A stretch of 64,000 nt of DNA, from positions 408,640 through 472,639 of IMG/VR virus record IMGVR_UViG_3300046660_000488; one strand, given 5' to 3'. The notes beneath the pieces were generated by a model that was given only the letters and a program-made list of their open reading frames with translations, was not told the origin of the DNA and ran no database searches. The DNA comes from a virus. A program made the translations under genes and the position numbers. This document shows, one piece after another, positions 12,194 through 64,000 of the stretch. Each line of letters begins with the position of its first letter. Position 1 is the first letter of the stretch.

Positions 12194-12195
12194 GG

Positions 12196-42490: not shown

Positions 42491-43351
42491 ATGAGAGTCG
42501 GAACAAGATCAGTCGCAGACATGTGGCAAACGTCTACTGGATATTTCCAAGTGGCCGCAGGGACAACTGCCCAGCGCCCGACGTCACCACGAAGCGGCAT
42601 GATGCGGTTCAACACCACGTTCCAGAACTATGAATACTACGCCAATGGCGCGTGGTTCCAGAGCCCCAACAACAAATACGACGGCGTCCGAGCGCCCACC
42701 GAGCAAGATTCGTCCGGCTTCGCAATCGGGAGCACATGGTTTTGGGGTGATCGTGTTTTCGTCTGCGTTGACGCGACCTCGGGCTCGGCTGACTGGATGG
42801 AAATTGCAACCGAAATGGACGTTCAGGCGGATCATCCGGGTGTCGCGATTGGTCGGTATTACGGGACTGCAACGGACGGCATGATGTCCACGTACACATT
42901 TTCGGACAGCGTTCTCTATGCGATTCCGTGTCAATTCCCGGCCGGTTACACGTTCAACCGGATCGGTGTTGAAACGATCTCTCGCCATACCGGATACAAC
43001 GTCCGCTTGGGAATCTACAGCAACGTGGACGGGTCGCCAAGTTCCCTGCTGCTCGACGCCGGTATCGTTTCGGCTTCGACGGTCGGTCTCAAGGAAATCG
43101 TCACCAATTTCACGACCGATGGCGACTGGTTCTGGCTGGTGTGCAATTTGCAGACCGACATGATCCTTCGGTCGATGAAATGCCCAAGCTGGGTCGCCGG
43201 TGGGGCGGTCCTCGGGCGGATGGTCAGCGGTGGTGATCCAGTCGTCCGGGTGTCGGCGACGCAAGCCTACGGCCCGCTCCCGTCCACGTTCCCGGCTTCG
43301 AAGACCGCTTCGGCCGACGACGCTCCCCAGCTTTGGCTTCGAAAGGTCTAA
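42491..43351 (+). CDS. tail fibre protein paralog (Phage_fiber_2 repeat plus a shared tip domain)
   Basis: The motif GYFQVAAGTTAQRPTSPRSGMMRFNTTFQNYEYYANGAW is present. The C-terminus LGIYSNVDGSPSSLLLDAGIV...PQLWLRKV is shared with the 41138 gene. Confidence 0.6.
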   Translation: MRVGTRSVADMWQTSTGYFQVAAGTTAQRPTSPRSGMMRFNTTFQNYEYYANGAWFQSPNNKYDGVRAPTEQDSSGFAIGSTWFWGDRVFVCVDATSGSADWMEIATEMDVQADHPGVAIGRYYGTATDGMMSTYTFSDSVLYAIPCQFPAGYTFNRIGVETISRHTGYNVRLGIYSNVDGSPSSLLLDAGIVSASTVGLKEIVTNFTTDGDWFWLVCNLQTDMILRSMKCPSWVAGGAVLGRMVSGGDPVVRVSATQAYGPLPSTFPASKTASADDAPQLWLRKV

Positions 43352-43791
43352 ACGCAGCGCGCGGTCGAGCGCAGCATCCAACGGTGTTTCTGGTGGGTCT
43401 CGATGCGCTCACCAAGGAAATTGGCCAGACCCTGTTGGTTCTCGTCGGTGGCCATCTGGAGCGCGACGGTCATCAGGTCGATCAACGTCTCGTGGGCTTC
43501 CATGAGGGCCAGCAGCACGCCTTGCAGGATGAACGGCTGCGGGTCGATCTCACCGACCATGCTCAGGGCGCTATAGGCCGACAGGGACGCAGGTGCCTTG
43601 GCGTCGAGCGCACGAAGCTGCTCGGCGTGGCGATCAAGTGCTTCCCACTGATCATCGTATTGATCCTTGAACATGCTGTGCAGGCCATAGAAATTCGGCC
43701 CCTCGACATTCCAGTGTGCACCATGGGTGGACAGGTAGACTGAGAAAGCGGTCGCGAGGACTTGCTGCATGATGGCGGTCAATTCTTCCAT
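43348..43791 (-). CDS. Dps-like ferritin / DNA-binding protein from starved cells
   Basis: The start was chosen at MEELTAIMQQ. LATAFSVYLSTHGAHWNVEGPNFYGLHSMFKDQYDDQWEALDRHAEQLRALDA matches the Dps ferroxidase-site pattern. A CACTAAATAC box lies immediately upstream on the minus strand. Confidence 0.6.
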   Translation of the reverse strand: MEELTAIMQQVLATAFSVYLSTHGAHWNVEGPNFYGLHSMFKDQYDDQWEALDRHAEQLRALDAKAPASLSAYSALSMVGEIDPQPFILQGVLLALMEAHETLIDLMTVALQMATDENQQGLANFLGERIETHQKHRWMLRSTARCV

Positions 43792-46737: not shown

Positions 46738-46921
46738 TGGTTGCCCTATAGTCTGTGTACAGCGACTTCAGATCGCTGTCGGTGAGGCCGTACTGATACT
46801 TCGCCCATTCCGCCGATGCGGTATAGTCGCGGAAGCCTTTGACGGCGACGCCATCGACGATGATGTTGACGCTCCCCAGCACTTCACGAAGCTGGATCGT
46901 CTTGCCGTTCTTCTCGACCAT
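46727..46921 (-). CDS. hypothetical small protein
   Basis: A 64-aa ORF. Confidence 0.3.
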   Translation of the reverse strand: MVEKNGKTIQLREVLGSVNIIVDGVAVKGFRDYTASAEWAKYQYGLTDSDLKSLYTDYRATSGF

Positions 46922-46941
46922 GGGTCACTCTCGCTGTTGGA

Positions 46942-47078
46942 TGGTTTCGGGGGCGGGCTTCGAACCCGCGACCTCCCGCGCGGAACATGTCTGGCCAGAC
47001 CATGTCCCATGTTGCACGAGCGCTCTTCTCCGCCTCAGCGCCTTAACAAGGCGCCTCTGGTCCTCTGAGCTATCCCCT
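46942..47078 (-). tRNA. tRNA-like element with a GTT (Asn-type) anticodon arm, a T-arm and an encoded CCA; 137 nt long, so non-canonical
   Basis: On the minus strand: GGGGATAGCTCAGAGG... GCGCC-TTGTTAA-GGCGC (a 5-bp stem and 7-nt loop with U33). After a roughly 60-nt insert carrying a 12-bp hairpin comes GCGGG-TTCGAAG-CCCGC-CCCCGAA-A-CCA. The acceptor strands do not pair as written. Confidence 0.3.
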
Positions 47079-48392
47079 AGACGTGGGTGTGCACATATTA
47101 GGTGGCACGGGCCGGACTCGAACCAGCCTCTAGGTGACAGGCATTGTGCACATGCAAGCCACCCCAAACGGCAACCATCTGACCGCTAATCAATGGGCGT
47201 GTATACCACCCACCTTCCGCAGTCCCGCTGACGCGCCAAAGAGGTGATGCAGGATCGAAGTGGCTTCTCCCCGGCATCGAGCGTCCCGCCATCGTCCATG
47301 TCTCTCGCGCGGGTAACATGGAAAACTTTGGCCTGTGCAATTCCCGCAGCAACACCCCACTATGCTTAGGACACGCCGAAGCGCACCCACCACCGTGCTG
47401 CAACGTTTTCGCAAACGCTATGCCCGATGCCTTGCGGCAGAGCGGGAACCTGTGTTGCCCGATACGGGCGAATTTTGTCGAGGTGAAGCCTTTAGGTCAG
47501 CCTTCACGTGTGCTGTCCACGAGTGCGGCCTACCCCTAAACGGTGGCGGCTCCGTCTCGCGTACGTCTTCACCTCGAATCCGCCCTAGTCCATGCGCTCA
47601 GAGGCCTCATCGGCATGGAGGGAGGCGAATATGGTAGAGAACGGTCGGAAGTCTCTCCGACATGCTCCGGTGACCGGAGTGCTTTAGCCGTAACCGCCCT
47701 AGCCTCGTTGTATACCCAGCGCGACGAGGTCCGGACCTCATTGTCACGCCTTCGTCTGGCAACCTTCAGGTGGAGTGCGCTTATTAAGCTACGTCCTCGT
47801 CTCTTGTGCTCATACGAGCAAAACTCTGGCGGCACGATTGGAACCGGAAATCGAACCTTCACCGGCGATCTTGCGACCGCCTTCCAGTGCCCTCACGAAC
47901 ACTGCCAACTCGTTTCACTGTCAAGTCACTGGGCAATTACTCCAGATCGTCTGTTGCGAGTGCGAGGACCCTACCTCGTAGTGCCGCCGTCGTCGGGGGT
48001 TTCGTCCCAAAGCGAGTCTGGGGATCGAACCTGCCGATTGGTGTGCCTGTTCAGGCAAATTGTGGGGAAGGCATGGACAAGCCATGCTCTGATCCTCGTG
48101 GACCATTCCAATCCCCGGTCTACCCCATCTTCATGGCCAGAAGAATGGCCTGTGGCAGACTTTTCGTGTTGCCCATTGCGGGCGAAAGGTGACGGACTAT
48201 GGACTTTTACCCCGGCTTTTTCGTACAGGTGGTTCCGCAACGCCCGTACACCGCATTCTCATGCGTCAGCTTCACGCACGATTTTCTCAACGAGAGGATC
48301 AGCGACTGTTCTTTCGCAAGTCTGGCAGTTTCACCGCCTAACTGATCTTCTCGAATTATCGCATGGCGCGCGGGAACCACGTTCGTCCCATA

Positions 48393-48459
48393 CATTCGTT
48401 CGAGGGTTCGAACCCCGGACCTCCGCTTCCGCGACGCTCTCCCACTGAGCTAAACGACC
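48393..48459 (-). tRNA. tRNA-like element (D-arm and T-arm canonical; anticodon region too short)
   Basis: On the minus strand: GGTCGTT-TA-GCTC-AGTGGGA-GAGC ... CGGGG-TTCGAAC-CCTCG-AACGAAT. Six of seven acceptor pairs form. Only 18 nt lie between the D-stem and T-stem, where about 22 are expected. Confidence 0.3.
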
Positions 48460-49357
48460 AACTCGCCATGCTATCCCCGGTTTGGTGGCCACCTCACCGA
48501 GGAATTCCTGTGGCCGTTCATCACGGCCGAATGTTCCGGCTACTGGGGGCTCTTTTTCACGAGTGGTCTAATCTCGCTACTAGACAGCCCTTTCCACCGT
48601 GGACGTTAGACCGAATGGGGACCAACCCATCCTTTTTCACGCCCGTCTTGCTTGCGGGTGGGACGCGACCCCCACTGTCTGCATTGCCAACCGGATGAAC
48701 CGGGCTCTCCGCAAATTCTGTTGCCGTTTCCGGCGAATGGCTGACACGGGCAATCCTACTTCCCACCGTCGCGGGTGTCGGATGCTCCTATGAAACCATG
48801 TCGGCCTCGAACCGATCCTCCCCCGATCAGGGGGCACACTACCCGTTGTGCTACAGCTTCCGTGTCCAAAGGGAGTCTATAGCCTCCCAGAGGTTGTTGC
48901 TCATGCGAGCGAATTTTGACCAGCGATTGACATCAGCAGCGCTACTTCAATCACGAACGAGGTGGGGGCGCCAGTCCCCACTTTCCCCAGTGTTTGCTGG
49001 GGTCTTATAAGCTGATAGATCACTCGTTCTACGCTTGGTCGTTCAGCAGTCGGCGCCGCTCAAGAGACAGCACCGTCGCCTACACTTGGATGCCCATGCG
49101 GGCAAATGGTTATGCGCGGGCGGATTTATACCACCGGCCTCCCCGTTGGAAACGGGCTCTCTCGCCCTCCGACCGTTTACTGACAGGTGCGTTTGCAACC
49201 GCGCCCTGCGTTCAACGTATCGAAGCCCAACGACGTCATGGTCACATCCGACTAACGGCGGGTAGTTTACCCCATGCCAGTTCGTTGCCTGAGCTACGCG
49301 CAACTTTGATGCCCATGCGGGCAAATTGGTACGCAGATGGGGTTTCCCGAGGAAACT

Positions 49358-49424
49358 ATACCGGTTGGATTCGAACCAACGCGCACGAGCAATGCTCGCT
49401 GCTCTCCCGCTGAGCTACGGCCCT
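49358..49424 (-). tRNA. tRNA-like element (canonical 5' half and T-arm; acceptor 3' strand mismatched)
   Basis: On the minus strand: AGGGCCG-TA-GCTC-AGCGGGA-GAGC ... GTTGG-TTCGAAT-CCAAC. The middle is CGAGC-ATT-GCTCG, a 3-nt loop rather than an anticodon loop. Confidence 0.3.
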
Positions 49425-50477
49425 TCAATCATGTGGGGATTGTAACCCCTGCACCGCCGAACGGGCACGATCATCTACGATCTCGATTTCCATCCTGTTT
49501 CGTCAACCGGTCGTCCAGAACCGATGCTCGAAGCATCAGAGACCCATCACCACTGACCACCCGCATTGCGCGGGTGACGGGGATTGAACCCGCCGGTCTC
49601 ATTCTTTTCGATCCTTGTACTTCGGACCCATAAACGACCGATTGACGGAACAGGATAGAATGTCTTGAACTTTGCATGTAACCAAATCTCGACTATCGCC
49701 GCAGTGTTGCACACCGCGTGGGACTGTCTCCCACTGTTCTCCGTCCAAAAGCTGGCAATACGCCGCCCTCGCATCAAGCAGGGCGTGGGGCATTCTCCCA
49801 CTGCAAATCGGTTAGAACCTGCCCTATTCCGCTCCCGCTGTGCGGGAGGTGGTCATCACCACTGAATTGGTTACAAGCAAAATCCAAGTTGTTGTTGATG
49901 CGAGACCGCCGACCATCTGCACAAGCCCGAAGGCGGCATGATCGTTCGGCGGTCTCGCCTCACCACGTCTCACAATGTCAAAGAACCCTTCCGAGGAAGG
50001 TGTCAGTGGGTTGCCCCGCCAACGTTTGAACCGTATACTTGAGTGCCAAGTTGAAGTCAAGCACTCATTTCGAATTTCGTGAAGGTTTCTTTCCCACCTA
50101 CAAAGTCAGCCTTTCGGCAGTTGCTTCTAAACGCCCAGCCCCGCGCTTCTTAGGGTCGAAACCCTCCACGTCACCCGAAGGTGAAAGGCTTATCCAACTG
50201 GCAGATTCAAACCGTCCCAACCCGTGTCGGACCTTGCGGGCAATTATTGAGACGTACCGGGCCTGCTGATCCAAGTGGGAACACAGGAGGCATCCGCTTT
50301 ATCCCAGACCGGATTATTCTGGTCAACGAGAAAACGACGGCCCCGACGCGAATGCACGAGTGAGGGGTGTCGAACCCCCACAGACCGCTTTCGGTTCCCG
50401 TTCTGCCTGCTGGTCGGCCCGGCATAATAGGTACTACGATCACCCGTGCATTCACGACGAGGCCGTCGCTTCGAAGA

Positions 50478-50756
50478 TTAGGGGACGACGCCGTCCTTGT
50501 ACAGGTTGCGGTCCACACTGATGTAGATCGCTTCCCAGCCCGCGTCGCGCGCCAGCGTGACCATGGCGTTGAAGATGCCGTCGCTGACCGGGCCGCTGGC
50601 GCGATGCTCGACGAACTTCCGCCACGCCTTGGTCGCATCGGTCGAGACCGCCAGCGACGCCGCTTCGAGATCGACGCGCGGCTTGCCCATGGCCGGAACC
50701 GTCCGGCCAATGATGTAGGCCGACGTCCAGTCCGGCTTGGTGACCTCGTCGGTCAT
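50478..50756 (-). CDS. hypothetical protein
   Basis: A 92-aa ORF. Confidence 0.4.
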   Translation of the reverse strand: MTDEVTKPDWTSAYIIGRTVPAMGKPRVDLEAASLAVSTDATKAWRKFVEHRASGPVSDGIFNAMVTLARDAGWEAIYISVDRNLYKDGVVP

Positions 50757-52416: not shown

Positions 52417-52782
52417 ATGGAAATGACTGCGGTACGTTTCACCATGCGACGGATCGACTTCGCCCCCTTCCACGACTGGATGGACGAGCATTACCCCGGA
52501 TGGGCCTACCACGTTGACGTCGGGCCTCTCGACAAAAGCAAAGAGCGCAGCTACCGCGCCGTTCTGGTACAATGCGGTGTGATCGCCGCGCATCCTCGCT
52601 ACATCGACCGTGACCCGCCTCTGGGCGCGGGGATGTCGATCCTGATCCCCGCCGACATGCAGCCCAAGCCGATCACGGAACGATGGGCCTTGCCCGGCTA
52701 TGCGTACGCTTACAAGTGGATTCCGGACATGGGTTGGCGAACCGTGCCGGTGTCAATGCAACTGCCGCTGACCGATAGCTAA
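52417..52782 (+). CDS. hypothetical protein
   Basis: The start at MEMTAVRF has a GGAG SD 6 nt upstream. Confidence 0.4.
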   Translation: MEMTAVRFTMRRIDFAPFHDWMDEHYPGWAYHVDVGPLDKSKERSYRAVLVQCGVIAAHPRYIDRDPPLGAGMSILIPADMQPKPITERWALPGYAYAYKWIPDMGWRTVPVSMQLPLTDS

Positions 52783-53366
52783 GCCGCGATCATGTGCTTG
52801 ATGATCGAAGTGACCTGCATTTCGGTTTCTTCGAGCGTCCCGCCGGTGTCGATGATGAAGTCGGCCATCTTGCGCTTGTCCCGGTCGGGCATTTGCTTGG
52901 CCAAGATCGTCTCGAACACCGCTGCGGTCATGTTCGGTCGAGCAAGCACGCGAGCGCGCTGGACAGAAGCTGGCGCGCTCGCTACCACCACCTTCACGCC
53001 GTCGAGGAATTTCGGCTTGCTCTCGAAGTAGAGCGGGACGTCATAGACAATCATCGGGAAGTAGGTATGCTTGCGCGCGAAGGATTCGTAGCTTTCGGTG
53101 AGCAGCGGCCCGACGAATAGTTCAAGCGCCGTCATCTTCTCCTGATCGTCCAGAACGATGGCGCGCAATTTCTTGCGGTCCACGTGATCCCAGTCGTCCA
53201 GCACGTCGCCGAACATCGACTTGATCTCAAAGGCGTGTTCAGACGAGTAAATCTCGTGCACGGCCGCGTCCGAGCAATGGACGGGGATGCCGTACTGCCG
53301 GAACATTTCGGAGATCGTGGTCTTGCCCATGCCGATGGAACCGGTGAGGACGAGCTTGGTGGTCAT
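52779..53366 (-). CDS. coaE: dephospho-CoA kinase
   Basis: The start is MTTKLVLTGSIGMGKTT, a P-loop in the CoaE position. The 195-aa length and overall CoaE collinearity fit. Confidence 0.75.
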   Translation of the reverse strand: MTTKLVLTGSIGMGKTTISEMFRQYGIPVHCSDAAVHEIYSSEHAFEIKSMFGDVLDDWDHVDRKKLRAIVLDDQEKMTALELFVGPLLTESYESFARKHTYFPMIVYDVPLYFESKPKFLDGVKVVVASAPASVQRARVLARPNMTAAVFETILAKQMPDRDKRKMADFIIDTGGTLEETEMQVTSIIKHMIAA

Positions 53367-53427
53367 GGTGGGCCTCGTGATACACACCAGCCTACCTCCG
53401 CATTGGGAATTTCGTCAACCAGATTCG

Positions 53428-53439: not shown

Positions 53440-54081
53440 ATGCGTGATTTGATCAGCCTCATGGAAAACTACATCGCTGAATGGGGCGATGAAGACGAAG
53501 ATGATCTCGATGGCGAAGGCCATTGGGGAGACGACGATGAAGCGGAAGATGAGCACGATGATCCGACTGAATATCGGACCAACGGCTATGACTTCGGCCG
53601 TCTGGGAAATTTCTATCACCAAGTGGTGGCGGCGGCCGACAGCCAGATGGATTCCGGATCGGAGATCGAGTTTTCCGATGTCCAGAATTGGGTCGAACAT
53701 CACGCTGAACTCTTCCAGCAAGGTACGATCACCGTCTTCCGCACCATGCGGCTACAGCATGGCGTCGTCGAGGCGCTGAAGGCTGGCACGGAGCTTGGCT
53801 CGCACTGGACCTACGAATTTGACGAAAGCGCTCTCGATGCCTTCGACATCAATGGTCAGGACGGTGGAACACTCTACACCTTCGCCGCGACGATCCACAC
53901 CGGGCAGGTCGCCTTCCCGCTGACCGTCGCCTACAACTGCCTCTTCCCAGAAGAGAAAGAAATCTACCCGTTTGGCCATGCGTCGCTGACGCTCATCGGG
54001 ATTTACGAGACCGAAGACATGGAAAACCCGCAGCGGGTGAACCTGCGTCCCGATCTGGTCGGTAAGGAATTTCCAATCTGA
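53440..54081 (+). CDS. effector-island protein 1 (shared N-terminal peptide MRDLISLMEN; acidic linker; unknown domain)
   Basis: The N-terminus is MRDLISLMENY. An acidic stretch follows: DEDEDDLDGEGHWGDDDEAEDEHDD. Confidence 0.55.
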   Translation: MRDLISLMENYIAEWGDEDEDDLDGEGHWGDDDEAEDEHDDPTEYRTNGYDFGRLGNFYHQVVAAADSQMDSGSEIEFSDVQNWVEHHAELFQQGTITVFRTMRLQHGVVEALKAGTELGSHWTYEFDESALDAFDINGQDGGTLYTFAATIHTGQVAFPLTVAYNCLFPEEKEIYPFGHASLTLIGIYETEDMENPQRVNLRPDLVGKEFPI

Positions 54082-55292
54082 TGCGCGAGTTCATCCAAAT
54101 CCTTCGTGAATCCTACCTCACCGATCAGATCAAGCTGGACGACAAGCTTGTCGCCGCCGTCAAGGCGCGCTTGATGAAGGGATCGTTCTACGATTACGAC
54201 ATGCCCTCGGATGAAAGCGAGTTTTTCGACGACGTCGAGGCCGCTTATCACAAGGTGCTCTGGAACACGCTGTTCAAGGACAATGCGGTAACGATCTATC
54301 GCGCCGAGCTTCGGCCGCGCGGTCGCAACTTCGGGTCCGTTGGCATCTATTGGTCGTTCCGCCCGGAAGGGGCTCAGGCGATCTATGGGCACGACCATGG
54401 CCCGGAAATCCACGGCGGCGCGGCACTGCGCGAAATCGTGTTCATGGCGTCGGCGCCGATCACGTCGGTCGATTGGATCGCCACGTTCGCGGCCAACATC
54501 GCCATGCCGAAAGAGCTTGAAATCACGCTCAAGAACAACGCGCCGTTGACCTTGGAGCAAGCGGTCGTCGGCAACCGTAAGACCACGCTGAACATCAAGT
54601 CGTTCGCCAGCAACATCACGCAGTACGACATGATGGAGACGCCGGTCAACGAAGTCGAGATCGGTGGTGGCGTCGAAGTTTCGGACCTCGACGACGATCC
54701 GGGCCACGACTACACGAACAAGCAACGCGATCTCTTCCGCGACACCCCGGCCGGTGAGCCGGAGCTTCCGCAGGGCTACAAGCTGGTCAACCGCGTCGGT
54801 GATTTCTGGGTCGCGCAGTGCCTGAAGAACATGGACCAGCACAGTGTCATGTACGTGTTCATCAAGGATGGCGCGGAGAATGCGGCTGGCTACATCGCCG
54901 CCCATAAGTGGCACATCGACAAGCTGAACTATCGTCACGAAAACATCTACCAGCCCATGTTGGGTGGCAAGGGTCTTCGGGTCGGCGCGGTGTACGTGCG
55001 CGAGCAGTATCGTGGCTCTGACCTGTCCTTGGTGATGTACAAGTGGATGCTGGAGAACGTCTGCGATTACCTGATGGCCGACAGCTTGCAGACCATGGGC
55101 GGCGTCAAGATTTGGAAGAAACTCCAAAGCCGCAAGCCGTTCCACGTCGAGGTCTGGAATGGCAATCAGGACACGACCCGCAAGCACCGTCGCGGCAAAG
55201 ACTTCGACCGCGTCTACGACAACGGCTACATGATCCCTTGGGTCACCATCGACAGCAAGTTGGACATCGTCCACTCCGATCCGTACGAGTAA
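54081..55292 (+). CDS. effector-island protein 2 (N-terminus MREFIQILRE; C-terminal GNAT acetyltransferase)
   Basis: The C-terminus VGAVYVREQYRGSDLSLVMYKWMLENV is GNAT-like. The ATG overlaps the upstream stop (TGATG). Confidence 0.55.
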   Translation: MREFIQILRESYLTDQIKLDDKLVAAVKARLMKGSFYDYDMPSDESEFFDDVEAAYHKVLWNTLFKDNAVTIYRAELRPRGRNFGSVGIYWSFRPEGAQAIYGHDHGPEIHGGAALREIVFMASAPITSVDWIATFAANIAMPKELEITLKNNAPLTLEQAVVGNRKTTLNIKSFASNITQYDMMETPVNEVEIGGGVEVSDLDDDPGHDYTNKQRDLFRDTPAGEPELPQGYKLVNRVGDFWVAQCLKNMDQHSVMYVFIKDGAENAAGYIAAHKWHIDKLNYRHENIYQPMLGGKGLRVGAVYVREQYRGSDLSLVMYKWMLENVCDYLMADSLQTMGGVKIWKKLQSRKPFHVEVWNGNQDTTRKHRRGKDFDRVYDNGYMIPWVTIDSKLDIVHSDPYE

Positions 55293-57040: not shown

Positions 57041-57976
57041 TTATTTCAGAGGGTAGACGCGGACGTAGTCCACGGTCATGGCCGCCGGGTAGACGCCCTT
57101 GGCCGGGTCACCGGCCGTGATGTCGCTCACCGCGACGTTCATCAGCAGGTACATCGGCTTGTCGTAGGCGAACGGCGTGCGATAGACCTCGACGTTGTTG
57201 ATGTAGAACACCAGTTCAGTCGGGGTCCACAGGACGCCGTAGGTGTTGAAGTTGGTCGTCGCCGTGGGCACGGTCGGCTGAGGCTTGGGCGACAGGGCTG
57301 TCTCGTTGCCGGTGACGCCGACGTGCACGGTGATGTTGTCCACGTTGGTGCGGTTCAGCGGCACGCCCTTCATGACCTGAATGGTCTTGTGCGGCCCGGC
57401 ATAGTGTTCGAGCACATCGATCTCCGGCAGGCGCCCGCCATTGGTCGCGGTCTTCTCGACCGGGAGCAGCCAGAACGCCGCCCACGTGCCGTCAGCCTTC
57501 GGCATCACCGCGCGCCATTCCCAGTAGCCGTAGGTCTGGGTGAAGCTGCGCTGGGTGGTCAGCAGGCCGCTGATGAAGTTGCGCGAGCCTTGGCCGCACG
57601 TTTTCTTCACGTAATCGGTGGCGCGGATGACGTTGATGCTCAGGTTGCCGTTGCCCTGATAGAAGACGTTCTGCCCGCAGTACTCGGTGTCCACGTAGAC
57701 CTGTTGCTCGCCGGTCAGGGCGCGCGACGAGAACTGTTCGGTCATGGTCAGCGGGCGGCTGGCCTTCTCACGCTGGTTGCCGAAGTAATAGTCGGTCTTC
57801 CAGACGCCCTTCGGGTTCTTTGTGCTCAGCGTGTCCAGCGGCGTGCCGTTTGGGGCGTTGAACTCAGCAGCAAAGGTTGGGGTCGGATTGAGGATCGAGC
57901 GATCCAGTGTGGCAGACATGGCTGGCGTACAAAGCATCAGAGCAATGGCCGCCGAAATGGCTTTCAAAAATTTCAT
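57041..57976 (-). CDS. secreted glycoside hydrolase family 16 (beta-glucanase/laminarinase-like)
   Basis: The signal peptide is MKFLKAISAAIALMLCTPAMSA. The GH16 catalytic motif LPEIDVLEH (ExDxxE) is present. Confidence 0.7.
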   Translation of the reverse strand: MKFLKAISAAIALMLCTPAMSATLDRSILNPTPTFAAEFNAPNGTPLDTLSTKNPKGVWKTDYYFGNQREKASRPLTMTEQFSSRALTGEQQVYVDTEYCGQNVFYQGNGNLSINVIRATDYVKKTCGQGSRNFISGLLTTQRSFTQTYGYWEWRAVMPKADGTWAAFWLLPVEKTATNGGRLPEIDVLEHYAGPHKTIQVMKGVPLNRTNVDNITVHVGVTGNETALSPKPQPTVPTATTNFNTYGVLWTPTELVFYINNVEVYRTPFAYDKPMYLLMNVAVSDITAGDPAKGVYPAAMTVDYVRVYPLK

Positions 57977-57977
57977 G

Positions 57978-58062
57978 ATATATTGGCTCCAAAAATTCAA
58001 GCCAATAGTAGTACAGTATTTACTATACTGTCAACATGAACGTTTACAGTTGTCAACGGTCG
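57978..58062 (-). promoter_or_regulatory. AT-rich promoter region for the GH16 gene (TTGACA-N18-TACTAT plus an embedded GTAAATAC box)
   Basis: On the minus strand: TTGACAgtatagtaaatactgtacTACTAT...GGAGCCaatatatcATG. The composition is strongly AT-shifted compared with the genome. Confidence 0.4.
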
Positions 58063-58254
58063 CTATCCATTGATGACGCGGACGTACACGGCTCGAAGAC
58101 GTCCGCTGGAGGTCATCTTTACGCGGAAAGTCACCACCTGTCCTTCGGAGTAGCACTTGCCTTTGCCGATGAGAAAAATGGGTCCGCCACCATCGGACGG
58201 GGTGATCATCCCGAAACCGCGAGAGTCTTTGAACCACTTGATTTGCCCGAACAT
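58063..58254 (-). CDS. cold-shock protein (CspA family)
   Basis: MFGQIKWFKDSRGFGMITPSDGGGPIF carries the RNP1-like KGFGFI motif. Confidence 0.65.
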   Translation of the reverse strand: MFGQIKWFKDSRGFGMITPSDGGGPIFLIGKGKCYSEGQVVTFRVKMTSSGRLRAVYVRVING

Positions 58255-58316
58255 GCGCGGGCCGGGGAGCGTAGGGGTCATCCCATCAGCCTACCAAATC
58301 TGGTAAACGAAACCCA

Positions 58317-58328: not shown

Positions 58329-58694
58329 ATGCGTTGGAACGAGATCATCACCGAAAGTGAAGTGCCGTGGGTCGATAATGCGACCAACACGTTGAGCGTC
58401 GGATCGACGACGCTGGAATTTGACCTGTATCGCAACGACGTGCAGATCAAAGACCTCGACACGCCGGTCGCCGACCGTGGTCAGGGCCAAGCACGCAAGG
58501 CCATGCTGATGCTGGCCGCCAAAGCCGATCAGGTCGGTGCCAAGATTTCGCTGCTGTCCTACCCGCAGGATGAAGTCACAAAGCAGGGACAGTTGAACAA
58601 ATTCTATCGCTCGCTTGGCTATAAGGCCATCCGCAAGTACCCGGACGGCGACGTGCTGATGGTTCGTCAGCCGAAAACGCCAAAAGGCGCTTGA
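58329..58694 (+). CDS. effector-island protein 4 (N-terminus MRWNEIITES; small GNAT acetyltransferase)
   Basis: VADRGQGQARKAMLMLAAKADQVGAKISLL...KFYRSLGYK. Confidence 0.55.
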   Translation: MRWNEIITESEVPWVDNATNTLSVGSTTLEFDLYRNDVQIKDLDTPVADRGQGQARKAMLMLAAKADQVGAKISLLSYPQDEVTKQGQLNKFYRSLGYKAIRKYPDGDVLMVRQPKTPKGA

Positions 58695-59464: not shown

Positions 59465-59746
59465 TCAAGAGTCGATAGCCCACCAAATCGCTTCGTCGGA
59501 CTCGCGATCCTCGACCGTGGGGTCATCGTGGAAGCCGATGATGTTCTTCTGCTTCATGCGCGTCGGGAAATAGACGCAGCCGCACGACGAGCAGATGTTC
59601 GCATCGGTGATCACCGGGATGATGTCGGGTGCGACTTCCGCAATTTCGGAAAGCTGAGAGTGGTGGATTTTGGCCTGACGGTTCAACGTCGGGCGCTCGC
59701 AGTTACGATTAGGGCAGGGCTTGTTCTGCTTCGAGCGGTGGGCCAT
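59465..59746 (-). CDS. hypothetical Cys-rich protein
   Basis: A 93-aa ORF with CPNRNCE...CSSCGC. Confidence 0.35.
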   Translation of the reverse strand: MAHRSKQNKPCPNRNCERPTLNRQAKIHHSQLSEIAEVAPDIIPVITDANICSSCGCVYFPTRMKQKNIIGFHDDPTVEDRESDEAIWWAIDS

Positions 59747-59773: not shown

Positions 59774-60640
59774 ATGCGCGAGTACATCAACATCGTAGAA
59801 TCCAACACCTATCCCATCAAGGGTGGAACGGTTCAGGTCGTGACCCGAGAACTGCGGGGCAATCGCTACAGCTTCACGGCCACGGTCGATGGACAGCGAG
59901 CCGCCATCGGTGAATTCCAAGCGCAAGACTCGATGAATGGCGACAAGGGATCGGTGGAAGAGATCACTGTCGCTGCGGCGTTCCGGCGCCGTGGGATCGC
60001 CTCGGCGATCTACAGCCATTTCGAGAAGATGGGCTTCACCGTTGTTCCATCCGATGATGTCCGGCCGGATGGCCAAGCGTTTTGGAAGAGCCGTCCGCTG
60101 ACGGAGTTGTCGCGGCCGGTCTTCATAGATGAAGTCGATCCGATCTTGAAGAAAGCCGGGTGGACCCGCGTCGGCTCTGGCTACTATGCCTCCGTCTACG
60201 CCAAGGAAGGCGTGAACTACGTCCTCAAGCTGTTCAGCAATCACGACAAAGGCTACATCGATTTCCTGAAGCTTGTTCAGCAGCATCCGAACAAGCACTT
60301 CCCCACGCTCCGTGGCCTGCCGCGTCGGATCACGTCGGGATACACGGCGGTCCGCATGGAGAAACTTCTGCCAGCCGGTTATGGTGACGACGTGCCAAGC
60401 CTTGGCGTCTACCTGCTCTGCCGCGACACCGGTCCCTATGCCAAGAACCAGTATCAGGTGAAGGCCTACGAGCACGTGGTGGAATATCTCCAGAGCCAGC
60501 CGGAACTGAAACGCGCCCTCGACTTGATCATCGACAATCTGCTTCCCAAATACAACGAAGACCTGCACAGTGAGAATTTCATGAAGCGCGCTGACGGAAC
60601 GCTGGTCATCATCGACCCGGTCGGTTTCGTTCGGAAATAG
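59774..60640 (+). CDS. effector-island protein 5 (N-terminus MREYINIVES; GNAT acetyltransferase fused to a protein-kinase-like/aminoglycoside-phosphotransferase-like domain)
   Basis: The GNAT part is EEITVAAAFRRRGIASAIYSHFEKMGF. The kinase-like part has a G-loop WTRVGSGYYASVYAKEG, a Lys in VLKLF, and a catalytic-loop-like LHSENFMKRADGTLVIIDPVGF. Confidence 0.55.
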   Translation: MREYINIVESNTYPIKGGTVQVVTRELRGNRYSFTATVDGQRAAIGEFQAQDSMNGDKGSVEEITVAAAFRRRGIASAIYSHFEKMGFTVVPSDDVRPDGQAFWKSRPLTELSRPVFIDEVDPILKKAGWTRVGSGYYASVYAKEGVNYVLKLFSNHDKGYIDFLKLVQQHPNKHFPTLRGLPRRITSGYTAVRMEKLLPAGYGDDVPSLGVYLLCRDTGPYAKNQYQVKAYEHVVEYLQSQPELKRALDLIIDNLLPKYNEDLHSENFMKRADGTLVIIDPVGFVRK

Positions 60641-60679: not shown

Positions 60680-60940
60680 ATGCAGCTTTCGTTTGATGAA
60701 TGGTGCGGCTCTGTCCGCGACAGGTTCGAGAAGACGTTCGGGTACACCGCCCCGAGGTCGCCATCGCTTGTCGAACTGGACAGCCGGGTGCAGGAACGGA
60801 TCATGCGCTGTGGCGTCGAGGCCCATCGTTTCGGCCTTGAGCATTACGACGAAATGGCTGTGCTCGCGCACCACACGCTGATCCTCGAAGACGTCAAGGC
60901 CGGAATGTCGAACAGCCATATGCGGTACGTGGCGCCTTAG
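60680..60940 (+). CDS. hypothetical small protein
   Basis: An 86-aa ORF. Confidence 0.35.
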   Translation: MQLSFDEWCGSVRDRFEKTFGYTAPRSPSLVELDSRVQERIMRCGVEAHRFGLEHYDEMAVLAHHTLILEDVKAGMSNSHMRYVAP

Positions 60941-61422
60941 ATTGTCGCCGGGATATTTGTGGCGATGGTCTTGTCCGTCTCGATGTCATAGAACCGGGCG
61001 ATTACAACCCGTGAACCGGGGCGAAGCGTGATCTCTTGATCGCTATCCCACCATCCAATGGCGCGCGCCATCGTTTCCGGCCAGTTGATAGCCGCCTGCG
61101 GAACGGTAACTTGCATCACGTAGTCGCCGTAATGGACGTCGGCATTTGTCTCGGGTGCAATGGCCCAGTGGATGCCGAGTTTGTTGCGATTGACGCTCGT
61201 CGTCGGCAGTCGCCGATAGAGGGTGACGTTCCCTTCGGACCACGGTTTCAATGCGGCTGACAATTCTTGTGTCCGGCCGACCATCCACTCGTCGAAGTCG
61301 TCAAACGCAAGTTTGTAGTTGTGGTAGAGACCACGAAGATCACCGGGGCCATAGCGGAAAGCATTGAGCACGGTATCCGGCGTAACGTCGGCCAAACTCT
61401 CGTTGATCTCATTGTATCGCAT
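60937..61422 (-). CDS. effector-island protein 6 on the minus strand (N-terminus MRYNEINESL)
   Basis: The start at 61422 lies immediately after GCTAAATATGGG on the minus strand, which matches the same box arrangement. Confidence 0.5.
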   Translation of the reverse strand: MRYNEINESLADVTPDTVLNAFRYGPGDLRGLYHNYKLAFDDFDEWMVGRTQELSAALKPWSEGNVTLYRRLPTTSVNRNKLGIHWAIAPETNADVHYGDYVMQVTVPQAAINWPETMARAIGWWDSDQEITLRPGSRVVIARFYDIETDKTIATNIPATI

Positions 61423-61459: not shown

Positions 61460-61467
61460 CTAAATAC
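61460..61467 (+). promoter_or_regulatory. late-promoter-like box CTAAATAC
   Basis: The box ends 4 nt before ATG 61472. The divergent minus-strand box lies at 61426..61433. Confidence 0.45.
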
Positions 61468-61471
61468 TGCC

Positions 61472-61888
61472 ATGCGCGAATTCATCAATCTCCTAGTCGA
61501 AGCCCAAATGTACCTCGGTGACAAGGGTACGACTTACTGGAACCATGCTGGCAAGTACGAAGCCGAAATGGGCAAGCTTTGGAAGGAACTGGTTCCCGGT
61601 TCCGGCCCGGCCGAAACACTCGCTGGCGAAGTGCTGCGCTGTGTCTCCAAAATCTACTACCGCCATTTCAATGACGGCGATTCGTTCACCGTGGACAGCT
61701 TCGCGTTCCTGAAGAAGAACATCGGCCATTTCACGACGTACGACGAAATGGTTGACCGTGCGGTCGAATTCGCGATGGACCCTGAGCACCAAGCCATGGC
61801 CAACAACTTCGACAGCGTGCGCGAACTCAAAATCTACGAAGGTCCCGAGTCAGGTTACGACGACGACGAGGATGAAGACGAGTACTGA
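61472..61888 (+). CDS. effector-island protein 7 (N-terminus MREFINLLVE; acidic C-terminal tail)
   Basis: A 138-aa ORF with C-terminus DDDEDEDEY. Confidence 0.5.
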   Translation: MREFINLLVEAQMYLGDKGTTYWNHAGKYEAEMGKLWKELVPGSGPAETLAGEVLRCVSKIYYRHFNDGDSFTVDSFAFLKKNIGHFTTYDEMVDRAVEFAMDPEHQAMANNFDSVRELKIYEGPESGYDDDEDEDEY

Positions 61889-61891
61889 TCC

Positions 61892-62551
61892 GTGCGCGAA
61901 TTCATCACCCTCATCGAGAGCGGCACAGCCGCTGAAGCATTTGACGACTGGTTCGGCAACAGCCGTGTGGTTGATGGTGACGGTCGGCCGCTGATCGTCT
62001 TCCACGGCACGAACCAACCGTTCGAGCAGTTCTCCAAGGCGCGCGGCGGCATGGCCACTGGCCCGCAGGCTGGTGCCATCCACGGGTTCTTCTTCACGAG
62101 CACCGAAGCGGAAGCTTGGGATTATGCCAAGCACGCCGGGAGCAAGGTCGTATCCGGTATCGACCATTTCGAGCAGGAGACGGAACGTCTGCGTTTGGAG
62201 CAGGAACGTCTTGAAAAGCTTGCCCAGCGCACGAACAAGAAATCGGACTGGGATGCGTTCTATGCCGCCTACCAGAATTGGGAAGATTTCGAGATAAATG
62301 CCACGCGCGAGGAAGACGATGTCGGCAACCGCGTCGTCAAGGCCTACCTGTCGCTCCAGAACCCTCTGGAGGTCAATTTCAACGGCACGATGCAGTCTGA
62401 GGCTGGCGTCATCCAAGACGTGGTCGAGAAGGCCGTACGCGACGGCAATGACGGCGTGATCATGCGGAACATCTACGACGGCCCGTATGGCGGCCACACG
62501 AGCGACCACTTCGTCGCGTTCTCACCCGATCAGATTCATCAGGTTGGCTGA
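61892..62551 (+). CDS. effector-island protein 8 (N-terminus V/MREFITLIES; H-Y-E class ADP-ribosyltransferase-like)
   Basis: The GTG start overlaps the upstream stop. RPLIVFHGTNQPFEQFS...GFFFTSTEAEAW matches the [FY]HGT motif of diphtheria-toxin/PARP-like ARTs. Confidence 0.5.
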   Translation: MREFITLIESGTAAEAFDDWFGNSRVVDGDGRPLIVFHGTNQPFEQFSKARGGMATGPQAGAIHGFFFTSTEAEAWDYAKHAGSKVVSGIDHFEQETERLRLEQERLEKLAQRTNKKSDWDAFYAAYQNWEDFEINATREEDDVGNRVVKAYLSLQNPLEVNFNGTMQSEAGVIQDVVEKAVRDGNDGVIMRNIYDGPYGGHTSDHFVAFSPDQIHQVG

Positions 62552-63420
62552 TGCGCTATCGCGAACTCATCGAGGCGGCAAGCGACGAGCCACCGTTCAA
62601 GAAACCCAAGGGCGTTCGCACACCGGCCTTCACCAAGGACGGGCGCCGCATCATCCTGTCGAAAGGTTACATGAGCGTCGATGCCATGATCGACGGCAAG
62701 CCTGCCGGGAACATGCAGATCAGCAGCCCGAGCGACGGCGGACTAGGCTACAGCAATCGGTTCTACGTCAACCGGGTGTGGGTCGAGGAAGAATTCCGTG
62801 GACAAGGCGTGGCCACGGCCATGTACGATTTCGCCTTCCGAGCCGGTTTCAGGCCACTGGGAATGAGCCGCACGCTCACCGACCAAGGTAAGGCGTTCTG
62901 GGACGACCACGTTCGCAAGAAGGCGTCCAAAGGTCTCGGCCGCGACTATCACAGCGATTATCCGAACCGGTTCCACTGGCGACCGTTGCCGATGTCTGAA
63001 GACATCATCAGCGAAGGCAAGGTTCATCAACTGGATACGGGCTACGGTGGAAACGTGCGAATGACGCTCATCTACCAGAATCCGTCTCCCGTTCAAGCAC
63101 AGACAATGGCCAAGAACCAGATGGACCGGTACAACGGCCTTCTGTACCTTCGTGGGATCATGTCCAACGGATCGACGGTCTATGTCGCCGATGGCTGGGC
63201 CTGCACCCATGACGATCTGATGCAGAATTTCTTCCCCGGCAAGAGTGAGAGCGACGAGCGCTTCACGACGTTCGAGATCGCCAACTATGCGGGCGGCAGT
63301 TACGGCGCCGACAGGACCACGTTCCCAGCGAAGGTCGGCGTGGTCAAAGCGGGACATTTCGACGTCGAAACGAACCCGCAGATCGCGAAGATCATCGCCG
63401 GATGCCGGGCGGTCAACTAG
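62551..63420 (+). CDS. effector-island protein 9 (N-terminus MRYRELIEAA; N-terminal GNAT acetyltransferase)
   Basis: VWVEEEFRGQGVATAMYDFAFRAGFRPLG. Confidence 0.5.
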   Translation: MRYRELIEAASDEPPFKKPKGVRTPAFTKDGRRIILSKGYMSVDAMIDGKPAGNMQISSPSDGGLGYSNRFYVNRVWVEEEFRGQGVATAMYDFAFRAGFRPLGMSRTLTDQGKAFWDDHVRKKASKGLGRDYHSDYPNRFHWRPLPMSEDIISEGKVHQLDTGYGGNVRMTLIYQNPSPVQAQTMAKNQMDRYNGLLYLRGIMSNGSTVYVADGWACTHDDLMQNFFPGKSESDERFTTFEIANYAGGSYGADRTTFPAKVGVVKAGHFDVETNPQIAKIIAGCRAVN

Positions 63421-63866
63421 GTCCGGCCGATGGTCAGATGGAAGTGCCGCTTTTCGGGCGGAAGGCCGTAGCGCTCTCGCACGGCCGCAAGTTCGTCGGA
63501 CTCCACGTTAAGCCACCAATGCGCGCCATTCGTATAGATGTCGTGCGTGTACTTGATCGCAATTTCCTCGCCATCGTCCGCACCCCAGAGCGCCGGTGTT
63601 GAAAGCGTCTCGCCGCGAATGACCGACACGTGCGCGCCCCACTTCGAGCGGTGGTGCAGGCCGATCCCAAACCGCACGCGGATCATGTCGGCATAGTACC
63701 GGGCGATCTCGTCATCGACCTGAAGCAGCAACCAGTCGTCGGCGTAGCGCAGCGTTCCCACGACGTCATGTACATACGCGGCATTCTCCCGGTCACGGTA
63801 GGTCGTGATCAGTCGTCCGAATTTGCTCCCAAGGATATGGGTTCCGTGGATGGTGTTTACGAACAT
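63417..63866 (-). CDS. 2H phosphoesterase superfamily protein (LigT / cyclic phosphodiesterase-like)
   Basis: Two H-x-[ST]-x motifs are present: GAHVSVIRG and RHFHLTIGR. Confidence 0.55.
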   Translation of the reverse strand: MFVNTIHGTHILGSKFGRLITTYRDRENAAYVHDVVGTLRYADDWLLLQVDDEIARYYADMIRVRFGIGLHHRSKWGAHVSVIRGETLSTPALWGADDGEEIAIKYTHDIYTNGAHWWLNVESDELAAVRERYGLPPEKRHFHLTIGRT

Positions 63867-63886
63867 GGTACACCCTTAATACCATG

Positions 63887-63894
63887 CTAAATAT
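63887..63894 (+). promoter_or_regulatory. late-promoter-like box CTAAATAT
   Basis: The box ends 4 nt before ATG 63899. Confidence 0.45.
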
Positions 63895-63898
63895 TGCC

Positions 63899-64000
63899 AT
63901 GCGAGATTTGATCAACATCATGGAGGATGCTCAGCAAGAGCAGTTGACTCCGCCGCCCGTTCTCTACCACGGAACGACGCCCTACAACGCGGCTCTGATC
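63899..64000 (+). CDS. effector-island protein 10, partial (N-terminus MRDLINIMED; ART or Tpt1/KptA-like PPVLYHGT motif)
   Basis: MRDLINIMEDAQQEQLTPPPVLYHGTTPYNAALI. YHGT near the N-terminus resembles diphtheria toxin (SSYHGTKPGYVDSI). PP..LYHGT also resembles KptA. The gene is truncated by the window. Confidence 0.45.
   Translation, partial: MRDLINIMEDAQQEQLTPPPVLYHGTTPYNAALI

Follow-up and report, generated by a model that had tools for sequence, protein, structure and literature searches.

Two ADP-ribosyltransferase-like proteins in a leader-tagged enzyme island of a jumbo phage, beside a 2H phosphoesterase

The end of the window (the whole stretch of viral DNA analysed here, 64,000 nucleotides) encodes two proteins with an [FY]HGT string, proteins 8 and 10, and a 2H phosphoesterase on the opposite strand between them. 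In this juxtaposition the initial annotation saw a possible functional pair, serving either host-modifying ADP-ribosylation or RNA repair. The question is then whether the three proteins work together or whether the two ADP-ribosyltransferase (ART)-like proteins belong to a different arrangement. The source of the window is a jumbo phage of the T4 superfamily and a relative of Agrobacterium phage Atu_ph07: the terminase is 56-57% identical to those of Atu_ph07 and Phosso, and gp32-like and RecA/UvsX-like genes are also present.

Layout of the locus

The positions first assigned to protein 8, the minus-strand ORF and protein 10 were all confirmed (Table 1), and the 2H ORF does lie between the two ART-like genes, but a GNAT gene on the plus strand also intervenes. 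The genes starting at 61472, 61892 and 62551 form a three-gene operon headed by a TAAATA motif, the start codon of the GNAT gene overlapping the stop codon of protein 8. The GNAT gene is followed by the convergent 2H gene with a 4-nt overlap, and a Shine-Dalgarno-like AAGGG stands ahead of the ATG of the latter. The GNAT protein scores 28.7 bits against Pfam Acetyltransf_1 (cut-off 20.7), its C-terminal half being without assigned function, and the 138-aa protein that opens the operon had no match in Pfam or PHROG. An NCBIfam search with the four query proteins also gave no match. Protein 10 runs off the window. An exact-DNA search of IMG/VR contigs with the window end gave no match, and the sequence past this point was taken from a Logan contig found via an identical protein (L001), where full-length protein 10 comprises 172 aa (12008-12526).

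Table 1. Coordinates of the features of the locus and of its island within the window.
Feature	Position	Strand	Remarks
Two leader genes	53440..55292	+	MRDLISLME (213 aa, TAAATA 5 nt upstream); MREFIQILRE (403 aa)
121-aa protein	58329..58694	+	Variant leader MRWNEIITE; TAAATA 5 nt upstream; weak GNAT-like match
288-aa leader protein	59774..60640	+	MREYINIVE; T7 gp0.7-like Ser/Thr kinase domain; TAAATA 5 nt upstream
161-aa protein	60937..61422	-	Variant leader MRYNEINE; TAAATA 4 nt upstream; divergent from the 61472 operon
TAAATA promoter-like motif	61461..61466	+	5 nt ahead of the ATG at 61472
138-aa protein, no assigned function	61472..61888	+	Leader MREFINLLVE
Protein 8, standalone ART-PolyVal ADP-ribosyltransferase domain	61892..62551	+	219 aa; GTG start; Pfam PF18760
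289-aa protein	62551..63420	+	N-terminal GNAT acetyltransferase domain; variant leader MRYRELIEAA
2H phosphoesterase	63417..63866	-	149 aa; motifs H79-V-S81, H143-L-T145; no leader
TAAATA promoter-like motif	63888..63893	+	5 nt ahead of the protein 10 ATG
Protein 10, first 34 codons	63899..64000	+	Start MRDLINIMEDAQQEQLTPPPVLYHGTTPYNAALI; runs off the window

Two ART-fold proteins of different families

Protein 8 falls far above the cut-off of Pfam ART-PolyVal (PF18760; 66.2 bits, cut-off 31.2, E 6.9e-18), and all 27 of its homologues are marked with the same family. A paralogue 8 kb past the window end (L001, 19305-19886) reaches 32.6 bits against that cut-off. A PDB sequence search with protein 8 returned nothing meaningful, and in a tblastn search of 50,697 phage records all matches were to phages that are distant and unrelated. 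The protein starts with the leader (V/M)REFITLIE and contains a helical insert, some 60 residues long, which the short relatives P0026 and P0027 do not have. The active site of ART-PolyVal domains is described as H-Y-D (PMC5512222). In protein 8, the strand-1 histidine, H38 of 'VFHGT', is invariant across the 20 sequences of the family alignment, and D187 in 'NDGVI', also invariant, is a candidate for the strand-5 Asp. The strand-2 Tyr of the family is missing, however: the motif here is 'GFFFT' (in full 'GFFFTSTEAE'), where F67 aligns with the Tyr of 'GLYLTT' in the paralogue, and close homologues also have Phe. The triad of protein 8 thus appears to be H38/F67/D187, as candidate residues, and judging from the alignment its activity is not assured, because Phe replaces the Tyr of the family.

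Protein 10 is a minimal ART-fold protein. It has the split beta-sheet, with [H/R]-G-[T/S] in strand 1 and an acidic residue opening strand 5, and its motifs run from the leader MRDLINIME through H24 (YHGT) and C57-T-T to E106-x-E108-x-R110. Among 39 sequences of its family, Y-H24-G-T is at least 90% conserved and E106-x-E108-x-R110 is invariant, the latter coinciding with the predicted strand 108-112 of the structure model. The downstream acidic residues on which the initial annotation had made its assignment depend are therefore present in the full-length protein. With its H / C-or-S / E-x-E site, protein 10 represents a compact ART family that has no entry in Pfam or NCBIfam and no member in the isolated-phage collection. 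When 1.84 billion representatives were searched with the profile, 34 proteins came up at E 0.001 or better; tblastn with protein 10 against the 50,697 phage records gave no match.

The resemblance of protein 10 to the tRNA 2'-phosphotransferase Tpt1/KptA, also proposed initially, does not extend to identity, which is rejected on architecture, triad and profile score. Against PF01885 (Tpt1/KptA) protein 10 reaches 12.6 bits where the cut-off is 26, the match covering residues 14-43 only, and just one of the 39 family members attains E 0.0018. In Tpt1, an N-terminal RNA-binding lobe supplies most of the catalytic Arg-His-Arg-Arg tetrad. In the model of protein 10, strand 1 is preceded only by about 20 residues of low confidence (residues 1-20, disordered and unstructured), so the RNA-binding lobe is absent. 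Moreover, TRPT1 (Tpt1/KptA) has the triad H-H-V (PMC7955679), whereas strand 2 of protein 10 reads V-C-T-T and strand 5 E-Y-E, giving H/C/E in place of an H-H-h triad. Tpt1/KptA nonetheless gives the closest structural match to the NAD+-binding lobe, and protein 10 has the P-x-x-L-Y-H-G-T strand-helix motif in common with it; the differences are the missing lobe and triad on one side, and the invariant E-x-E and two extra C-terminal helices of protein 10 on the other. The toxins of the R-S-E clade (heat-labile enterotoxin, pertussis toxin and CARDS toxin) have Arg in strand 1, whereas protein 10 has His (Y-H-G-T).

Membership of the ART superfamily, then, holds for both proteins, and the strict H-Y-E triad, under which they had been classed, for neither. 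The [FY]HGT string by itself is at chance level; the folds are real on profile and structure evidence. A close kinship between the two proteins is rejected in favour of a relation at the ART-superfamily level only: hhalign gives a probability of 90.7% with the leader and 46% without it, the higher score being inflated by the leader that proteins 8 and 10 have in common.

The 2H phosphoesterase and its relation to the ART genes

The protein encoded at 63417-63866 has the 2H fold, as first supposed, with a correction to the motifs. In 29 homologues, the conserved motifs are H79-V-S81 and H143-L-T145 (H79 invariant; S81, H143 and T145 at least 90% conserved). In the N-terminal 'HGTH', conservation is confined to G8 (invariant) and T9 (at least 90%) and does not extend to either His. 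The score against 2H-SAK (PF22547) is 25.6 bits, just under the cut-off of 27, and the source collection labels the protein and three homologues with that family. Two H-x-[ST] motifs, the 2H fold and a small single domain are shared with 2H-SAK, LigT/ThpR CPDases and phage Acb1, but with the solved 2H enzymes there is no sequence match, PDB searches with the protein and with its family profile giving nothing meaningful. A feature of its own is an N-terminal beta-hairpin region (residues 1-49) with a conserved G-T...G-S...R motif. A BFVD fold search with the model returned mostly unnamed proteins and was uninformative.

The 2H gene belongs to a family of conserved backbone genes in Rak2/Atu_ph07-like phages. 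Together with DUF7205 and DUF7275 genes it forms a shared backbone block, which in this phage has the protein 10 gene and a leader gene of 242 aa as insertions. In five of eight relatives, an RNA ligase or a nucleotidyltransferase of the CCA-adding type is encoded 1.9-4.8 kb from the 2H homologue: Salmonella phage Munch (TIGR02306, 242.7 bits) and L009 (PF09414) have an RNA ligase at a distance of about 2 kb, and L002, L005, L010 and Munch a PolyA_pol/CCA-type nucleotidyltransferase at 1.9-4.8 kb. In the other three relatives, the 2H gene adjoins ribonucleotide reductase with no RNA-repair gene in view, and the link to repair is thus a loose synteny rather than an operon. The 2H protein is best read as an RNA-end-healing or cyclic-nucleotide enzyme unrelated to the ARTs. 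Most likely it would open 2',3'-cyclic phosphate ends, so that RNA ligase and CCA-adding enzymes can repair the tRNA.

As for the proposed pair, the adjacency of ART and 2H genes is not conserved in related loci. Outside the studied phage, none of eight 2H-homologue neighbourhoods (L002-L005, L008-L011) holds an ART homologue, and neither of two protein-10-homologue neighbourhoods (L006, L007) holds a 2H gene. Also, the 2H gene has neither the leader nor the promoter-like motif that the ART genes carry, in addition to being on the opposite strand. Proteins 8 and 10 and the 2H enzyme hence do not look like a working pair, and their adjacency may be an accident of cassette insertion. It is very improbable, in the light of these loci and of the architecture of protein 10, that the three form one module in which a Tpt1/KptA-like protein 10 would act on RNA 2'-phosphates and the 2H enzyme would hydrolyse ADP-ribose 1'',2''-cyclic phosphate or heal cyclic RNA ends. 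The RNA-repair option is plausible for the 2H enzyme alone, given the repair genes nearby, and not for an ART-2H unit; the better half of the earlier reading is host-modifying ADP-ribosylation, which fits the ARTs without the 2H enzyme. A different role for the latter, as an Acb1-like anti-defence nuclease that destroys the cyclic-oligonucleotide immune signals of the host instead of taking part in RNA repair, is judged unlikely.

A leader peptide, a promoter-like motif and an enzyme island

What proteins 8 and 10 do have in common is an N-terminal leader of about ten residues with the consensus M-R-x-[FWL]-I-x-[IL]-[VI]-E, which is found on island genes for ART, GNAT and kinase proteins and for proteins without assigned function. 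Strict matches number six in the window, all within 53.4-64 kb and accompanied by variants, seven in L006 and four in L007; none was found in the 2H-only neighbourhoods scanned (L002-L005, L008). In fuller form the consensus reads M-R-x-[WFL]-I-[ND]-[IL]-[VI]-E-[NAG]. The protein-10 family keeps the leader in 25 of its 39 members, whose domains are only 23-41% identical. The operon-internal genes at 61892, 62551 and 54081 lack the promoter motif but have the leader, and the leader codons vary synonymously, which points to selection on the peptide.

The leader genes lie in an island that extends from 53.4 kb to past the window end, that is, over the last 10 kb of the window and at least 8 kb further, and that consists of a variable set of small enzyme genes including proteins 8 and 10. 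In L006, a 904-aa ART-PolyVal protein flanks the equivalent island. The 288-aa kinase protein matches phrog_15752 (E 6e-11) and, by tblastn, T7-type kinases, with hits among the 50,697 phage records in distant, unrelated phages only; we read a putative GNAT-like region at its N-terminus. The 403-aa leader protein had no match in the same records, and no homologue of a leader gene was found there in Atu_ph07 or other isolated phages, so that the published virion mass-spectrometry data for Atu_ph07 are no guide to packaging.

Many leader genes start 4-5 nt past a TAAATA. This motif occurs 26 times against 10.0 +/- 3.3 in shuffles, and CTAAATAnTGCCATG 7 times against 0.08 expected. TAAATA is also found 27-56 nt upstream of sheath, virion-protein, terminase and fibre-like genes (PHROG identities). 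Several non-leader genes, among them one ferritin-like (43348-43791) and one Zn-finger-like (59465-59746), show the same 5-nt spacing between TAAATA and ATG, which means that the arrangement is not specific to leader proteins. TAAATA resembles the T4 late promoter, and by this analogy and its position it may act as a late promoter. A scan for sigma-70 promoters and intrinsic terminators around the genes gave no excess over shuffled controls.

Around these observed features (the folds, the shared leader, the promoter-like motif and the island), the reading to which we give about even chances is that of late-expressed enzymes tagged with a T4-like capsid-targeting propeptide, packaged and injected, with the 2H protein as a separate backbone enzyme. 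The leader would work like the T4 capsid-targeting sequence, carrying the proteins into the prohead, where a presumed prohead protease would cut it after [IL]-x-E; the sequence covered, the 64-kb window and a 20-kb locus, does not reach the head module. The tagged enzymes would then be injected with the DNA, and the ARTs, like T4 Alt, would modify targets in the host with ADP-ribose from NAD+. The island could accordingly represent the domain set of the 'polyvalent proteins' delivered as separate tagged proteins. Put more broadly, and held only tentatively, Atu_ph07-like jumbo phages and megaphages may possess an undescribed delivery system: a hypervariable island of single-domain host-modifying enzymes (ART-PolyVal, the H/[C,S]/ExE ART family, GNATs, a T7-type kinase and others without assigned function), bearing MRxFIxIVE tags as a propeptide cut by the prohead protease, and expressed from leaderless mRNAs that begin at T4-late-like TAAATA promoters.

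It is also conceivable, if rather unlikely, that the ART-like proteins are not packaged but do their work within the infected cell at a late stage, the leader serving, for example, translation, recruitment of a partner or chaperone, Clp-type turnover or localisation. The leader and its TAAATA context are there in the DNA while packaging is what we infer, the ferritin-like and Zn-finger-like genes have the same TAAATA-ATG arrangement without a leader, and Clp-type machinery is known from this group, with seven Clp-family proteins encoded by Atu_ph07 (PMC6102473). Nevertheless, a role in translation initiation is judged unlikely, since genes inside operons have no promoter motif of their own and still retain the leader. 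The leader end, [IL]-[VI]-E plus a small residue (N, A or G), fits the site of the T4 prohead protease, and the domains found are those of polyvalent proteins, which are delivered by the virion (PMC5512222). A further alternative, in our view doubtful, concerns catalysis: one or both ART-like proteins would be NAD+ glycohydrolases or inactive binding modules instead of transferases. The Phe at the strand-2 Tyr position in protein 8 and all its close homologues would agree with this, as would the Cys of protein 10 where other ARTs have Ser, Tyr or His. However, the conservation of the strand-1 His in both families and the invariance of the candidate acidic residues (D187 and E106/E108) argue for retained function, and Phe could still stack on nicotinamide.

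The finding is mostly ordinary in that this group of jumbo phages is already known to encode ART-PolyVal domains and 2H enzymes. Beyond the catalogue are the compact protein-10 family with its hybrid H/[C,S]/ExE active site, and the leader with its promoter-adjacent start codons, which suggests a simple sequence rule for proteins packed in heads and injected. If packaging and injection hold, sequence alone could suffice to compile, by means of the tag, the proteins that such phages inject. Confirmation by proteomics would provide a ready-made list of early host-takeover and anti-defence effectors in uncultured megaphages. It would also provide a short tag for loading foreign proteins into megaphage capsids, a use to which the T4 capsid-targeting sequence can be put.

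Finally, the two closest parallels are the polyvalent proteins and the internal proteins of T4. In the former, ART, kinase and GNAT domains are three of the four listed protein-modifying families (PMC5512222), and the GNAT and kinase fusion partners are here the neighbours of the ART-PolyVal gene; protein 8, though, stands alone with its own short leader, whereas in polyvalent proteins the domain is part of a giant multidomain chain (Iyer et al. 2017, PMC5512222), and it differs from the ART-PolyVal family in its strand-2 Phe. The parallel with T4 lies in the arrangement of the leaders. The MR leader, like a T4-type propeptide, is short, stands on unrelated proteins and ends in [L/I]-x-E, but its likeness to the T4 capsid-targeting sequence is limited to length, hydrophobic pattern and this terminal [IL]-x-E, the sequence being MRxFIxIVE here and MKTYQEFIAE in T4. 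The T4 sequence comprises 10 residues, gp21 cleaving after L/I-x-E; the Alt propeptide has 7 residues, and the internal proteins are diverse with only the targeting sequence in common (PMC9026906, PMC3012670). Alt and IPI-III are in the same way unrelated proteins with only an N-terminal leader of about ten residues ending in [IL]-x-E in common, and in both systems one class is an ADP-ribosyltransferase and the phage belongs to the T4 superfamily; the genes described here also probably have late-type promoters. On the other hand, Alt is an R-S-E ART whereas proteins 8 and 10 are of the H type, and compared with T4 the array described here, whose packaging and cleavage are putative, is larger and enzyme-rich, with most start codons abutting the promoter-like motif.

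Proteins 8 and 10 and their phage

The window (G+C 58.9%) codes for the phage tail sheath, tail tube proteins and large terminase, together with gp32-like, RecA/UvsX-like, seryl-tRNA synthetase and ferritin-like proteins. Sinorhizobium phage Phosso (469 kb) and Agrobacterium phage Atu_ph07 (490 kb) have the terminases nearest to its own, at 56-57% identity, followed by Pseudomonas phage PA5oct and the Rak2-like phages. Based on this gene content and kinship, the virus is a T4-superfamily jumbo phage of the group named 2.2 in PMC7824862. At the DNA level, the match to isolated phages is a 194-bp stretch only. Also, no convincing ORF is found across ~3.5 kb of the window, where two Rfam tRNA matches and one odd ARAGORN tRNA, with a two-base anticodon, may correspond to unusual or degenerate phage tRNA genes.

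The ADP-ribosyltransferase (ART) folds of proteins 8 and 10 and the 2H phosphoesterase fold of the gene between them, as called in the initial annotation, are correct. Protein 8, also present as an identical copy on the 67-kb Logan contig that provided 10 kb past the window end and the complete 172-aa protein 10, is an ART-PolyVal protein (Pfam, 66.2 bits against a cut-off of 31.2), and all 27 of the 27 homologues found bear this mark. The ART-PolyVal active site comprises H (strand 1), Y (strand 2) and D (strand 5) (Iyer et al., PMC5512222). In the alignment, H38 is found in protein 8 and close homologues alike, D187 is invariant, and Phe replaces the strand-2 Tyr; F67 aligns with the Tyr in 'GLYLTT' of a paralogue.

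In the protein 10 family, Y-H24-G-T is near-invariant, strand 2 reads V-[C/S]-x-[T/S]-[T/S], with C57 at the triad position in the profile alignment, and both G80 and E106-x-E108-x-R110, which opens predicted strand 5, are invariant. In this H/[C,S]/ExE arrangement, the strand-1 His of H-type ART clades is joined with R-S-E-clade motifs (S-x-S and E-x-E). Neither the family nor the island discussed below is represented in Pfam, NCBIfam or the isolated-phage collection, PHROGs gave protein 10 a non-significant match only, and no description of either was found in the literature.

Coordinates of features in the window and in related loci (L001, this phage on the Logan contig; L006 and L007, neighbourhoods of protein 10 homologues)
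Feature	Position	Strand	Remark
Seryl-tRNA synthetase	8550-9827	-	Pfam Seryl_tRNA_N and class II core domains
ORF-poor stretch	46900-50500		
Rfam tRNA matches	48393-48459, 49361-49420	-	
ARAGORN tRNA	48791-48860	-	
138-aa protein	61472-61888	+	no assigned function
Protein 8	61892-62551	+	219 aa
289-aa protein	62551-63420	+	GNAT N-terminal domain
2H candidate	63417-63866	-	149 aa
Protein 10	63899 onward	+	truncated by window end
Other leader genes	53440, 54081, 58329, 59774, 60937(-); L001 12534, 19305(-)		
Non-leader island genes	57041-58000, 58063-58281, 52779-53414	-	
Cys-rich small protein	59465-59746	-	counterpart at L007 1860-2138
Ferritin-like gene	43348-43791		
TAAATA sites	6542(-), 13539, 20237, 24422, 26574, 39119, 43802(-), 53429, 58318, 59757(-), 59763, 61432(-), 61461, 63888		
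Imm32-marked protein	L001 14126-14428, L007 8140-8487	-	100-115 aa
904-aa protein	L006 1-929		cut by locus end
Divergent leader-gene pairs	L006 1387-2739, 8091-9361		

Relation between the ARTs and the 2H gene

The ARTs and the 2H gene had been proposed as a functional pair for RNA repair or ADP-ribose processing, with protein 10 as a possible tRNA 2'-phosphotransferase (Tpt1/KptA). However, this pairing is not borne out. Protein 10 resembles Tpt1 in the NAD+ lobe only, the whole N-terminal RNA lobe is missing, and its H/[C,S]/ExE arrangement differs from the H-H-V triad of Tpt1 (PMC7955679); on these grounds the identity is rejected. Moreover, the genes do not co-occur: eight 2H homologues with 35-71% identity to the window protein have no ART homologue in their neighbourhoods when these are searched with HMMs built from our alignments, and neither neighbourhood of protein 10 homologues contains a 2H gene. 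The pair is therefore rejected with considerable confidence.

In three of the eight neighbourhoods (L002, L005 and L010), a PolyA_pol/CCA-type nucleotidyltransferase lies 1.9-4.8 kb from the 2H homologue, and in another (L009) an RNA ligase lies at 2.3 kb. In Salmonella phage Munch, an RNA ligase (TIGR02306, 242.7 bits) is located 2 kb upstream of the homologue, whose downstream side has a CCA-type enzyme at 3.6 kb, and in L003, L004 and L011 the homologue is directly 3' of ribonucleotide reductase genes. A backbone block of 2H, DUF7205 and DUF7275 genes is common to L002 and L005; here, 2H and DUF7205 are separated by protein 10 and a 242-aa gene on the opposite strand, which looks like a cassette insertion. 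In two phages, the backbone block next to the island includes a protein with a weak Imm32 (immunity-protein) Pfam mark.

A leader peptide and a promoter-like motif in the island

Protein 8, protein 10 and two other genes of their operon start with variants of a leader of ~10 residues, M-R-x-[FWL]-I-x-[IL]-[VI]-E (MREFITLIE, MRDLINIME, MREFINLLVE, MRYRELIE, MREYINIVE and MRDLISLME, for example), which further genes also carry. The strict pattern matches six times in the window, always within 53.4-64 kb, in a variable island that extends past the window end, and seven and four times in L006 and L007, with no match in the 2H-only loci scanned (L002-L005, L008). Despite a domain identity of only 23-41%, 25 of 39 protein 10 family members keep it (consensus M-R-x-[WFL]-I-[ND]-[IL]-[VI]-E-[NAG]); in protein 10, it is predicted to be unstructured. 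Since operon-internal genes also carry the leader and synonymous codons vary, the constraint acts on the peptide.

Leader proteins bear ART-PolyVal, the new ART, GNAT and T7 gp0.7-like kinase domains (phrog_15752, E 6e-11), or domains without known family; for the C-terminal half (residues ~150-289) of the 289-aa GNAT protein, no family was detected. Non-leader island genes have Pfam marks for glycoside hydrolase 16 (a protein whose N-terminus is signal-peptide-like by eye), cold-shock domain and CoaE-like kinase.

The motif [C/A]TAAATA occurs 26 times in the window, against 10.0 +/- 3.3 in shuffles, and CTAAATAnTGCC-ATG seven times against 0.08 expected. TAAATA is found 27-56 nt ahead of the ORFs for the sheath, terminase and a virion protein and of fibre-like ORFs, 4-7 nt before the ATG of island genes, the ferritin-like gene and a 359-aa ORF (24435), and exactly 4-5 nt from that of leader genes. 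The T4 late promoter is TATAAATA; by analogy, TAAATA would be a T4-late-type promoter, and island genes would produce leaderless or nearly leaderless mRNAs from it. In L006, two divergent leader-gene pairs have common palindromic promoter regions (ATATTTAG-N-CTAAATAT); thus, leader genes occur as head-to-head cassettes. One leader gene and the gene of a small Cys-rich protein (MAHRSKQNKPCPNRNCERP...), which lacks the MR leader, diverge from back-to-back TAAATA motifs; the Cys-rich protein is kept in a relative's island.

Comparison with T4 internal proteins

In T4, the ART Alt and internal proteins unrelated to one another share nothing but a short capsid-targeting sequence at the N-terminus (10 residues; 7 in Alt). 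This tag directs them to the prohead core, gp21 cleaves it off after L/I-x-E, and they are later ejected into the host (PMC9026906, PMC3012670). The leader matches this sequence in length, hydrophobic core and terminal [IL]-[VI]-E, its genes have the promoter-like motif of structural genes, and the phage is also of the T4 superfamily. Because of these likenesses, we propose that proteins 8 and 10 would be expressed late with the other leader genes, packaged in the head, freed of the leader by cleavage and injected, where they could act as NAD+-dependent modifiers of host targets; to this full model we give an even chance.

Virion-delivered polyvalent proteins have four protein-modifying domain families (PMC5512222), three of which (ART, kinase and GNAT) are found on leader proteins. 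Moreover, the ART-PolyVal-containing 904-aa protein flanks the L006 island with its seven or more leader genes, so fused and separate delivery forms may coexist in one phage. ART-PolyVal domains and 2H enzymes are already known in these phages, and the whole would represent T4-style tagged internal effectors.
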